Shown piece by piece: positions 1 through 4,303 of a stretch of DNA of 4,303 bases. The stretch lies in NCBI RefSeq assembly GCF_003334355.1, contig NZ_QOWP01000069.1. One strand, 5' to 3'. Under the pieces are notes generated by a model that saw nothing but the letters and a program-made list of their open reading frames with translations, was not told where the DNA came from and ran no database searches. The stretch is from Escherichia coli. Lineage in GTDB: Bacteria; Pseudomonadota; Gammaproteobacteria; Enterobacterales; Enterobacteriaceae. The position numbers and the translations under genes are program-made. Within the stretch, counting starts at the first letter, position 1; every line of letters begins with the position of its first letter.

Positions 1-248
<248 letters not shown>

Positions 249-326
249 TCACCACATCAACCAGGCAACATGCCCGACTTGTTGAATGCAATAAACAGAA
301 GGAAAAAACAGGGAGGAGAAAAGAAG

Positions 327-402
327 TGGTGCTGATAGGCAGATTCGAACTGCCGACCTCACCCTTACCAAGGGTGCGCTCTACCAACTGAGCTATATCA
401 GC
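327..402 (-). tRNA. thrT: tRNA-Thr (anticodon GGU), 76 nt with encoded CCA
   Basis: Reverse complement of 327..402 reads GCTGATATAGCTCAGTTGGTAGAGCGCACCCTTGGTAAGGGTGAGGTCGGCAGTTCGAATCTGCCTATCAGCACCA. It has a 7-bp acceptor stem (GCUGAUA/UAUCAGC), a T-loop GTTCGAATC, anticodon loop CUUGGUAAG, and a 3' CCA. Confidence 0.95.
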
Positions 403-408
403 ACATCT

Positions 409-483
<75 letters not shown>

Positions 484-599
484 ATCCTGGAACTCGGCTA
501 CCTGATTTTCATTCTGCACTGAATATCGAGAGAAGCTCTCTTCATTCGAGCCGGTAAGCGAACTTATCGTCTCGGGCTACGCCATCGCGTGGCCGAAAT

Positions 600-684
<85 letters not shown>

Positions 685-692
685 GGACTTGA

Positions 693-768
<76 letters not shown>

Positions 769-835
769 ATCAAGTAGCGCGCATTCTATGGAGACATGCG
801 AGTTCATGCAACTAAAAAATTGCATAATTTGTTTT
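769..835 (-). promoter_or_regulatory. Promoter of the thrU-tyrU-glyT-thrT-tufB operon: -35 TTGCAT (806..811), 17-bp spacer, -10 TAGAAT (783..788), GCGCGC discriminator (777..782), AT-rich UP-like tract upstream
   Basis: Minus-strand reading is ...aaattatgcaattttttagTTGCATgaactcgcatgtctccaTAGAATgcgcgctacttgat followed directly by thrU. The hexamers are near-consensus with optimal 17-bp spacing. The GC-rich discriminator is typical of stringently controlled stable-RNA promoters. The A/T-rich sequence at about 812..835 is in the position of an UP element. Confidence 0.7.
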
Positions 836-1129
836 ATTGGTCACATTTTATGCGACACGATGAAGAAACAGCCGAACGGAGGGCAGATTAGCACACTTTT
901 TCAACATCATTGTGCTCAACAATGCGCTCCTGCTAAACCATAATTCTTTTTATCAGATGGAATATCTGTCACATTGCTTTTCAACGATAGCTTCCTGGCA
1001 GAGATTTTTTCTTATTATTCCTCCCCATCTGGTGTTACCCTCCTGCCCATTAACCCATTCAACAGAACTGTGACGCGCCATGGCAAATATCGCTTTGCCG
1101 ATAGAGCTATGACCGCCAGAAACATGCTT

Positions 1130-2080
1130 ATGAGTATAAAAGAGCAAACGTTAATGACGCCTTACCTACAGTTTGACCGCAACCAGTGGGCAGCTCTGCG
1201 TGATTCCGTACCTATGACGTTATCGGAAGATGAGATCGCCCGTCTCAAAGGTATTAATGAAGATCTCTCGTTAGAAGAAGTTGCCGAGATCTATTTACCT
1301 TTGTCACGTTTGCTGAACTTCTATATAAGCTCGAATCTGCGCCGTCAGGCAGTTCTGGAACAGTTTCTTGGTACTAACGGGCAACGCATTCCTTACATTA
1401 TCAGTATTGCTGGCAGTGTCGCGGTGGGGAAAAGTACAACCGCCCGTGTATTGCAGGCGCTATTAAGCCGTTGGCCGGAACATCGTCGTGTTGAACTGAT
1501 CACTACAGATGGCTTCCTTCACCCTAATCAGGTTCTGAAAGAACGTGGTCTGATGAAGAAGAAAGGCTTCCCGGAATCGTATGATATGCATCGCCTGGTG
1601 AAGTTTGTTTCCGATCTCAAATCCGGCGTGCCAAACGTTACAGCCCCTGTTTACTCGCATCTTATTTATGATGTGATCCCGGATGGAGATAAAACGGTTG
1701 TTCAGCCTGATATTTTAATTCTTGAAGGGTTAAATGTCTTACAGAGCGGGATGGATTATCCACACGACCCACATCATGTATTTGTTTCTGATTTTGTCGA
1801 TTTTTCGATATATGTTGATGCACCGGAAGACTTACTTCAGACGTGGTATATCAACCGTTTTCTGAAATTCCGCGAAGGGGCTTTTACCGACCCGGATTCC
1901 TATTTTCATAACTACGCGAAATTAACTAAAGAAGAAGCGATTAAGACTGCCATGACATTGTGGAAAGAGATCAACTGGCTGAACTTAAAGCAAAATATTC
2001 TACCTACTCGTGAGCGCGCCAGTTTAATCCTGACGAAAAGTGCTAATCATGCGGTAGAAGAGGTCAGACTACGCAAATAA
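1130..2080 (+). CDS. coaA: Pantothenate kinase (type I CoaA), 316 aa
   Basis: The ORF 974..2080 contains the CoaA sequence from [20 protein letters not shown]... to ...[12 protein letters not shown], with the Walker A P-loop GSVAVGKST. The recalled CoaA N-terminus MSIKEQ corresponds to the ATG at 1130, which is Met53 of the six-frame ORF. The 52 upstream in-frame codons are not preceded by any SD and are taken as untranslated leader. Confidence 0.92.
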
Positions 2081-2086
2081 TTTGCA

Positions 2087-2117
2087 GGGGAGCGAATACT
2101 CCCCTTTCTTATTTTTC
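2087..2117. terminator. Intrinsic terminator hairpin between the convergent coaA and birA genes (stem GGGGAG 2087..2092 / CTCCCC 2099..2104, loop CGAATA, then T-rich tract 2105..2117 on the plus strand)
   Basis: The sequence gcaGGGGAGcgaataCTCCCCtttcttatttttctg sits 7 nt after the coaA stop codon. The T-tract follows on the plus strand, so it terminates coaA. The other flank on the minus strand is only moderately U-rich, so termination of birA is likely weaker. The hairpin and T-tract overlap the birA stop codon at 2109..2111. Confidence 0.6.
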
Positions 2118-3074
2118 TGCACTACGCAGGGATATTTCACCGCCCATCCAGGGTTTTATTATTCCATCCTGCTCAAGTAATAAAGCCCCCTGTTTGTCTA
2201 TTCCGCGTGAAATGCCAAATATTTCTTTATCACCAATGATAAGTTTCACTGGGCGATTAATAAAATTATCCAGCTTTTCCCAGCGCGACAGATAAGGTGC
2301 CAATCCTTCTTGTTCGAAGAGTTCCAACGCAGCACGTAATTCACGTATTAGCATGACCGCCAACGTATTACGATCGAGATTGATCCCCGCTTCCTGCAGC
2401 GTGATCCACCCCTGATTAACGACACTCTCTTCAACACGGCGCATTGCCATGTTGATCCCGGCTCCAATGACTATTTGCGCCGCATCGCCAGTTTTGCCAG
2501 TCAGCTCCACAAGAATGCCTGCCAGCTTGCGATCCTGCAGATAGAGGTCATTAGGCCATTTGACACGAACTTTATCTGCTCCCAGCTTGCGTAATACTTC
2601 CGCCATCACGATACCGATAACCAGACTTAAACCAATCGCCGCCGCCGGGCCTTGTTCCAGACGCCAGAACATCGACAAATATAAGTTTGCGCCAAAAGGC
2701 GAAAACCATTTCCGCCCCCGGCGACCACGGCCAGCCTGCTGGTATTCTGCAACACAGGCATCGCCCGATTTAAGCTCTCCGATACGATCAAGAAGGTACT
2801 GATTCGTGGAGTCAATAACTGGCAGCACGGCTACACTACCGCCATCCAGCTGACCCAATATCTGTTCAGCATTAAGTAACTGGATGGGCTCAGGCAGGCT
2901 GTATCCTTTACCCGGAACGGTAAAGACATCAACGCCCCAGTCACGCAGTGTCTGAATGTGTTTATTAATAGCCGCCCGGCTCATTCCCAGCGTTTCACCC
3001 AACTGCTCGCCAGAGTGAAATTCACCGTTCGCTAACAGGGCAATCAATTTCAGTGGCACGGTGTTATCCTTCAT
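2109..3074 (-). CDS. birA: Bifunctional biotin-[acetyl-CoA-carboxylase] ligase and biotin operon repressor BirA, 321 aa
   Basis: The translation [50 protein letters not shown]... has an N-terminal winged-HTH region and the biotin-binding glycine-rich motif [12 protein letters not shown]. Length and sequence match BirA. An SD GGAGA (plus strand tctcc at 3082..3086) lies 7 nt upstream of the ATG. Confidence 0.95.
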
Positions 3075-4099
3075 GAAATTGTCTCCACTGCGCTCACTTC
3101 ACCTGATGCACCAATAAAGCGGACTTCAGGCTCAAGCCAGACATTAAATTTTTCACCCACTTTTTGTCTTACATGGTGTGCCAGTTGCACCACATCTTCG
3201 CTTTTTGCATTGTCTTCATTAATGAGAACTAACGCCTGTTGACGGTGCACCGCAGCCCCACCCATTTGCATCCCTTTTAGCTGGCACTGATCAATAAGCC
3301 AACCTGCTGCCAGTTTTACTGAACCATCCGCCTGGGGGTAATTTGGTGCTGTTGGAAATTGTGACAGTAATGCTTCAGCCGTTTCGGCAGATACAACAGG
3401 GTTTTTGAAGAAACTACCGGCATTGCCATTCACTTTTGGATCAGGGAGTTTGGTGGTGCGCATATGACACACCGCATTAAATACTTGCTGTGGCGTTACT
3501 GTTGTAGGATCCAGACGAGTTAAGTCACCATACGTTAGTACAGGTTGCCACTCTTTTGGCAGACGCAGACCTACGGCTACAATGGCGAAGCGATCCTGGT
3601 ATTCATGTTTAAAAATACTGTCGCGATAGCCAAAACGGCACTCTTTGGCAGTTAAGCGCACTTGCTTGCCTGTCGCCAGTTCAACACAATCAACATAAGC
3701 GCAAACTCGCTGTAATTCTACGCCATAAGCACCAATATTCTGGATAGGTGATGAGCCGACACAACCAGGAATTAATGCCAGATTTTCCAGACCAGGCATA
3801 CCTTCCTGCAAAGTGTATTTTACCAGGCGATGCCAGTTTTCTCCGGCTCCTACATGTAAATACCACGCATCAGGTTCATCATGAATTTCGATACCTTTGA
3901 TCCGGTTGATGATCACCGTGCCGCGATAGTCTTCCAGAAAAAGTACATTACTTCCTTCACCCAGAATAAGAACGGGTTGTCCTTCTGCGGTTGCATGCTG
4001 CCAGGCATTGAGTAATTGTTGTTCGTCTTCGGCACATACAATGTGCTGAGCATTATGATCAATGCCAAATGTGTTCCAGGGTTTTAAGGAGTGGTTCAT
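3071..4099 (-). CDS. murB: UDP-N-acetylenolpyruvoylglucosamine reductase MurB (FAD-dependent), 342 aa
   Basis: The translation [54 protein letters not shown]... matches MurB, with the FAD-binding domain at the N-terminus. The stop codon TGA at 3073..3071 overlaps the birA ATG at 3074..3072. Confidence 0.95.
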
Positions 4100-4105
4100 A
4101 GCTGC

Positions 4106-4111
4106 TTTCCT
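4106..4111 (-). promoter_or_regulatory. Shine-Dalgarno sequence of murB (AGGAAA, 6 nt upstream of the ATG)
   Basis: Plus strand tttcct at 4106..4111 is AGGAAA on the minus strand. The spacer gcagct precedes the ATG at 4099..4097. Confidence 0.5.
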
Positions 4112-4192
4112 GATGCAAAAACGAGGCTAGTTTACCGTATCTGTGGGGGGATGGCTTGTAGATATGACGACAGGAAGAGTTTGTAGAAACGC

Positions 4193-4217
4193 AAAAAGGC
4201 CATCCGTCAGGATGGCC
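4193..4217 (-). terminator. Rho-independent terminator downstream of the 5S rRNA gene (stem GGCCATCC/GGATGGCC, loop TGAC, followed by TTTTTGCGTTTC on the minus strand)
   Basis: Minus-strand reading is aagcagaaGGCCATCCtgacGGATGGCCtttttgcgtttc. It is an 8-bp perfect GC-rich stem with a 4-nt loop and an immediate T-run. It matches the sequence I recall as the T2-type terminator of the rrnB operon. Confidence 0.85.
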
Positions 4218-4232
4218 TTCTGCTTAATTTGA

Positions 4233-4303
4233 TGCCTGGCAGTTCCCTACTCTCGCATGGGGAGACCCCACACTACCATCGGCGCTACGGCGTTTCACTT
4301 CTG
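4233..4303 (-). rRNA. rrfB: 5S ribosomal RNA, 3' 71 nt (gene continues beyond the right edge of the window)
   Basis: Reverse complement of 4233..4303 reads CAGAAGTGAAACGCCGTAGCGCCGATGGTAGTGTGGGGTCTCCCCATGCGAGAGTAGGGAACTGCCAGGCAT, which matches the 3' part of E. coli 5S rRNA. The symbol rrfB is inferred from its position next to murB, not from the sequence itself. Confidence 0.93.

Follow-up and report, generated by a model that had tools for sequence, protein, structure and literature searches.

The window, meaning the whole stretch of 4,303 nt of Escherichia coli DNA that was analysed, corresponds to the rrnB-tufB interval and is read here on the minus strand. In this direction, the 3′ end of the 5S rRNA gene is followed by the spacer CAAATTAAGCAGAA, a T2-type terminator hairpin, a 97-nt leader, and murB—with the murB ATG at 4099, 132 nt past the 5S end—and then by birA, coaA, a tRNA cluster, and the start of tufB. 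The hairpin is the sole terminator between 5S and murB in the window. The features are given below, on the minus strand unless stated otherwise.

4232..4303, minus strand: rrfB (5S rRNA gene of rrnB), 3′ 72 nt, truncated by the window edge
4227..4244, minus strand: 18-nt sequence AACTGCCAGGCATCAAAT, single copy, made up of the last 13 nt of 5S and 5 nt of trailer
4227..4231, minus strand: 5S 3′ trailer CAAAU, identical to K-12
4231..4218, minus strand: 14-nt spacer between 5S and hairpin, CAAATTAAGCAGAA, read from the sequence
4191..4223 (extended stem), minus strand: intrinsic terminator hairpin, equivalent to K-12 rrnB T2 (100% identity)
4217..4198, minus strand: hairpin core GGCCATCC-TGAC-GGATGGCC, with an 8-bp stem and a 4-nt loop
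4185..4197, minus strand: U-rich tract of the terminator, UUUUUGCGUUUCU, read from the sequence and kept in all Escherichia rrnB tails aligned
4100..4190, minus strand: T2-to-murB leader, the same in T1-containing and T1-less alleles
3071..4099, minus strand: murB (UDP-N-acetylmuramate dehydrogenase), 342 aa, from the open reading frame list and the RefSeq annotation of the REL606 locus (99.95% identical)
2109-3074, minus strand: birA, after murB
Further along the window from birA, plus strand: coaA
After coaA: four tRNA genes, Thr(UGU), Tyr, Gly, and Thr(GGU), which are thrU, tyrU, glyT, and thrT in K-12
After the tRNA cluster: start of tufB

The mature 3′ end of rrfB (..GGCAU) falls at 4232 according to the K-12 annotation and at 4234 according to PGAP and Rfam. 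The part of rrfB contained in the window is identical to the rrfB genes of K-12, REL606, and strain C, and was matched by the Rfam model RF00001 at 4234-4303 with 35.4 bits (E 6.8e-6; gathering score 38), only model positions 47-120 being inside the window; the full-length 5S of strain C scores 92.8 bits with the same model. A preliminary description of this DNA had located the hairpin at 4198..4217, which is exact, and had put the 5S end at 4233, the spacer at 15 bp, and the start of murB 133 bp beyond the 5S end, all of which are right within 1-2 nt (4232 or 4234, 14 nt, and 132 nt were found). Judging from K-12 data, an RNase E cut site probably lies 3 nt past the mature 5S end, in the CAAAU trailer (site position from PMC8144298, citing Roy, 1983 and Li & Deutscher, 1995).

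The hairpin has the properties of an intrinsic (Rho-independent) terminator. Its 8-bp G+C-rich core and extended stem form a stable structure (MFE −22.7 kcal/mol, z = −5.3), with 0 of 200 shuffled sequences being equally stable, and the U-rich tract UUUUUGCGUUUCU lies immediately 3′ of the hairpin at 4197..4185. Furthermore, the sequence is 100% identical, from the 18-nt repeat through the hairpin to murB, to that of the experimentally characterised T2 of K-12. In K-12, termination has been reported for 87% of transcripts at T1 and 100% at T2 (PMC8144298, citing Orosz, 1991), and termination at T2 on one in vitro template was about 50% (PMC3993855). A consensus promoter and terminator scan of 3900-4303 returned no terminator and no sigma-70 consensus match. 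In our reading, the scan extends stems greedily with G-T pairs and thereby absorbs four of the five T's, so that its T-run rule fails; the negative was attributed to this stem-extension rule and rejected as evidence against a terminator. Negatives from a consensus terminator scan of this kind need care, a textbook terminator at 4185-4223 having been missed.

Comparison with the rrnB tail of K-12

The region 4171400-4172400 of K-12 MG1655 was aligned with the window, strain C, and RM9513. Relative to the window, the K-12 sequence contains one clean extra segment of 168 bp; otherwise the two agree at every base between the end of 5S and a point ~200 nt into murB, and 33 SNPs separate them across the full 4.3 kb. 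In K-12 a copy of the 18-nt direct repeat AACTGCCAGGCATCAAAT lies on either side of this segment, the two 5S-end repeats being 168 bp apart from start to start. The window has one copy, at 4227-4244, and the two pieces of the window that BLAST aligned with K-12 (1-77 and 60-4303) overlap by 18 nt. On this alignment, the indel junction is placed somewhere within the 18-nt AACTGCCAGGCATCAAAT copy.

The order in K-12 is 5S, T1, about 120 bp ending in ..CCATAAACTGCCAGGCAT (..GCCCGCCATAAACTGCCAGGCAT), and then T2, CAAATTAAGCAGAAGGCCATCC..., exactly as the preliminary description had stated it. The alignment showed no direct abutment of 5S on T2 at the K-12 rrnB, the 168-bp T1-rrB segment lying between them. 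In blastn-short searches, the T1 hairpin AAAGGCTCAGTCGAAAGACTGGGCCTTTCG gave full matches in K-12 and RM9513, and neither this hairpin nor the 150-bp body of the unit had a match in the window or in the REL606 and strain C loci. The K-12-type dual tail is therefore not what the window contains: there is no T1 after 5S, no rrB/TLR body, and a single 18-nt copy.

The 168-bp segment of K-12 is terminator T1 plus rrB, a described tRNA-linked repeat (TLR) and small-RNA gene (identification from PMC8144298). The identity of the unit rests on that paper because Rfam gave no family for rrB when the K-12 spacer was searched at E <= 0.01. Three of the seven rrn operons of K-12, namely rrnA, rrnB, and rrnD, end in dual terminators and the other four in single ones, with a TLR named rrA, rrB, or rrF between T1 and T2 (PMC8144298). 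A TLR is recognised by its last 18-19 nt, which duplicate the 3′ end of the stable-RNA gene preceding it (PMC8144298), and the repeat at rrnB is described in the legend to Figure 1 of the same paper (PMC8144298). The rrB unit is transcribed by read-through of T1, and cleavage of its transcript occurs 3 nt downstream of both the 5S end and the repeat, RNase E having been suggested for both cuts (PMC8144298). RrB binds Hfq and CsrA, and the deletion phenotypes are mild (PMC8144298). In the tRNA cluster of the window, a direct-repeat search of 250-900 found no 18-19-nt tRNA-end repeat in the tyrU-glyT spacer and only tRNA-to-tRNA similarity.

The window thus represents the same locus as the K-12 rrnB T1-rrB-T2 tail (Brosius, 1981; Orosz, 1991; Stenum et al., 2021, PMC8144298), with which it has in common the 5S 3′ end, the 18-nt sequence, the T2 hairpin, the leader, and the start of murB. 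It differs from that tail in lacking T1, the rrB TLR body, and the second 18-nt copy, so that a single terminator stands in place of the K-12 pair and rrB is missing. With respect to the TLRs (Egan & Landy, 1978; Rudd, 1999, both cited in PMC8144298), the family to which the missing segment belongs, the window is an empty-site allele with no TLR at the rrnB tail. The arrangement is that of a single-terminator rrn tail, namely a 14-nt spacer followed by one hairpin, with no TLR and, in matching genomes, one 5S. Within K-12 itself, rrnG has this layout, 5S being followed directly by CAAATTA.GC..AAGGCCATCCTGACGGATGGCCTTTTTGC with the hairpin core and spacing of the window; it differs from the window in its downstream sequence, which contains no murB, and by three substitutions in the 14-nt spacer. 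Our own check of the K-12 tails showed the T1-unit-T2 module at rrnA as at rrnB.

Tail alleles in E. coli and related species

The frequency of each tail was estimated in a sample of 5,426 complete E. coli genomes. The K-12 dual tail was found in 2,513 of them (K-12 300-bp spacer at least 80% covered), and a single-piece junction of 5S, terminator, and murB leader in 2,882 (53%) at E <= 1e-45; a stricter threshold of E <= 1e-60 retained 935 genomes only, a diverged hairpin allele being lost there. Single-piece junctions comprise the T2-only tail of the window, in about 605 genomes (524 + 81, about 11%; at least 95% identity to the window junction), and a single hairpin with a T1-like core, in 2,274 genomes (S10EC-type junction as query), the split between 605 and 2,274 having been made by identity bands with sequences inspected for a few genomes per class. 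Between them, these alleles cover 5,392 of the 5,426 genomes. The exact allele of the window is a minority one, and a single-terminator rrnB tail is the majority state in E. coli.

The T1-like-core allele occurs in S10EC, Nissle 1917, Seattle 1946, and most O157:H7 strains, and also in E. whittamii and E. albertii. It shares with the window one hairpin at the same position, the U-tract, the murB leader, and a single 5S, and it differs in the hairpin itself, which is GGCCCAGTC-GGAA-GACTGGGCC in place of the GGCCATCC-TGAC-GGATGGCC core of the window. When S10EC, E. whittamii, and E. albertii were aligned, the T2-like and T1-like cores were seen as alternatives at window positions 4191-4223 with the flanks constant. 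E. coli has both forms, as have other Escherichia species, and even O157:H7 is divided between them (strain 9234 versus MB9-1). This two-form pattern points to a swapping of hairpins between rrn tails.

The 150-bp T1-rrB unit had no megablast match anywhere in 1,448 of the 5,426 genomes (27%), a count in which diverged copies could be missed; genomes bearing the unit have a median of 2 copies, and K-12 has 3. Judged by these matches, much of the species E. coli would be able to do without the RrA/B/F small RNAs.

Overall, the single-terminator tail is real, common, and already known, and it is K-12 that carries the extra, described unit. The structural variant announced in the preliminary description is one relative to K-12 only, and it is not notable as such, since 2,882 of the 5,426 genomes have a single terminator. 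The rrnB T1-T2 layout of K-12 (and of cloning vectors) is not the E. coli standard, which is a useful caution of little general biological weight: the widely used BL21 and REL606 have neither T1 nor the rrB small-RNA gene at rrnB. With rrB missing at rrnB in 53% of genomes, and no unit detectable by megablast in about 27%, these absences fit the mild deletion phenotypes of K-12 and supply natural knock-out backgrounds for work on RrA/B/F. In the literature on murB read-through or tRNA-linked repeats, nothing was found on strain polymorphism of the rrnB tail.

Other species were surveyed with a MurB-based scan of one genome per species, which gave 80 loci, mostly from draft assemblies, so that the proportions are rough. 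In 32 of the 80 the locus ends before 5S, which leaves 48 informative ones with a 5S or a TLR remnant upstream of murB on the contig. Among these 48 Enterobacteriaceae genomes, 40 have 5S followed by a tail without a TLR, and 8 have a TLR; the TLR-bearing loci that were read are those of Kluyvera genomosp. 3, Citrobacter portucalensis, Enterobacter sp. CC120223-11, and Cedecea davisae. Within Escherichia, E69, E1V33, and E. whittamii have 5S and then one hairpin, 132-134 nt from murB, and the contig of E. albertii begins at the hairpin. E69 and E1V33 have a T2-like hairpin core, E. whittamii and E. albertii a T1-like one.

Two further arrangements were encountered in this survey. In Enterobacter sp. 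JUb54, a T1-type hairpin comes after 5S and a T2-type hairpin about 45 nt further on, and the stretch separating the two hairpins contains neither a TLR body nor a 5S-end repeat, so that the terminator is dual but the small-RNA unit is missing. In Escherichia sp. MOD1-EC7003, the conserved block of the murB leader is preceded by unrelated sequence and not by an rrn tail; this sequence has a reading frame starting ATGGACGAAAAACAATTACAG that looks like the start of a protein-coding gene. Either an insertion interrupting the rrnB-murB linkage or a chimeric contig would account for it.

Origin of the allele

The window very probably carries the E. coli B/C-type allele of the rrnB tail, consisting of 5S, 14 nt, T2, the 97-nt leader, and murB, with exactly one 168-bp unit fewer than K-12. 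Over its full length, identity reaches 99.95% with the B strains REL606, BL21(DE3), C41, and C43, with strain C, and with many isolates. There are two mismatches to REL606 in 4,303 nt, at 2356 and 1768, neither of them near the rrnB tail. The first corresponds to BirA Ala240Val and the second is a synonymous change in coaA; at either site K-12 agrees with REL606. Because the best 60 matches listed among the 5,426 genomes all score as REL606 does, the two changes look private to the source strain, or else may be sequencing errors.

The two alleles would interconvert by homologous exchange, either through precise deletion between the 18-nt direct repeats or through gene conversion with other rrn tails that carry or lack the T1-rrB unit. 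We lean slightly towards a recent precise deletion in the lineage of the window, both because the T1-bearing RM9513 shares the murB-birA haplotype of the window and because this route is mechanistically simple. RM9513 has the T1 unit at rrnB, yet it shows one mismatch to the window in 1,945 nt, and its MurB and BirA proteins bear the accessions found in REL606 and strain C. The gain or loss of the unit on that haplotype is therefore recent.

Only somewhat less probable is ancestral retention, in which the lineage of the window never had T1-rrB at rrnB and the dual tail of K-12 came from gene conversion with an rrnA, rrnD, or rrnE tail. This agrees with deletion on the identity of the feature and differs from it in direction only. 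The single T2-type hairpins of E1V33 and E69, with no unit and 132 nt from murB, fit retention as well as they fit deletion, and retention is also in keeping with the absence of the unit upstream of murB in 40 of the 48 informative Enterobacteriaceae genomes and with its presence at different operons in different strains. However, the presence of RM9513, with T1, and the window on one murB-birA haplotype argues for a recent change, and a one-step deletion would be mechanistically simpler than a conversion with only about 45-60 bp of downstream homology.

The position of the unit varies by strain, being rrnA, rrnB, and rrnD in K-12 and rrnE in NCCP12480, whose match to the window equals that of REL606. 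The rrnE tail of NCCP12480 runs from 5S through T1, a TLR unit, and a T2-like hairpin to yjaB, without an annotated yjaA; the rrnE tail of K-12 has a single hairpin of another kind after rrfE, and then yjaA. The gene yjaA is a presence/absence marker in PCR phylogroup typing.

A broader reading, which we regard as doubtful, would make the T1-rrB unit a cassette that moves among rrn tails via the 18-nt repeat and the shared T2-type hairpin, with a dosage ranging from three in K-12 to none and with a possible phenotype. Variation in both the copy number and the position of the unit across E. coli was observed here, including the roughly 27% of genomes in which megablast detected none. If the cassette reading were true, the dosage of RrA/B/F, or the choice between dual and single terminators, might—speculatively—affect CsrA/Hfq-linked regulation or the expression of cell-wall and biotin genes.

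The preliminary description had left two alternatives, a direct 5S-to-T2 junction without T1 and a second full 5S copy with T1 further upstream. The first is what is seen in the matching genomes REL606 and strain C. The second would place another 5S and T1 just outside the window, in the manner of rrfD-thrV-rrfF of rrnD; the window does end inside 5S, and K-12 rrnD does have two 5S genes, but the arrangement is highly improbable here and is refuted for REL606 and strain C, where the annotation runs 23S, a 94-nt spacer, one 5S, T2, and murB. In these two genomes, neither T1 nor the unit body was found in 0.6-1.5 kb upstream, and in strain C a single 5S was detected by Rfam over the upstream 1.5 kb. 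S10EC and O157:H7 strain 9234 likewise have 23S and then one 5S. As the window stops inside 5S, the statement of a single 5S is one about genomes 99.95% identical to the window, whose two apparently private SNPs imply that its exact source is absent from the 5,426 genomes.

An assembly artefact, in which the 168-bp unit was collapsed between its repeats beside a multi-copy rRNA operon, is the least probable reading of all: rRNA operon ends are common break points of draft assemblies, and 32 of the 80 species loci stop before 5S, but the junction recurs in 2,882 complete genomes (about 605 with the T2-only sequence), the T2-only form is present in the independently sequenced B-lineage strains REL606, BL21(DE3), C41, and C43 as well as in strain C, and a junction of 5S, terminator, and murB is found in other species too.

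Expected consequences for transcription

From the identity of the sequences and the cited K-12 experiments, transcription of rrn in the window's allele should end at T2, and 5S maturation should be unaffected. Indeed, the 5S precursor would keep its RNase E site because this site lies inside the retained 18-nt repeat. By the same comparison, no RrB would be expected from the window's rrnB.

Read-through into murB should be no different without T1. With T2 and the leader unchanged, and with termination at 100% for T2 and 87% for T1 (Orosz, 1991, via PMC8144298), the lack of T1 is not expected to raise it. The bearing on murB read-through that the preliminary description attached to the missing segment was overstated, T2 and the T2-to-murB leader being identical in both alleles. 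Within that leader, a stretch at about 4126-4160 on the minus strand, ACAAGCC(N)..ATACGGTAAACTAG, is kept from Escherichia to Klebsiella, Kosakonia, and Enterobacter while its surroundings vary, and it is a candidate promoter or regulatory site of murB.
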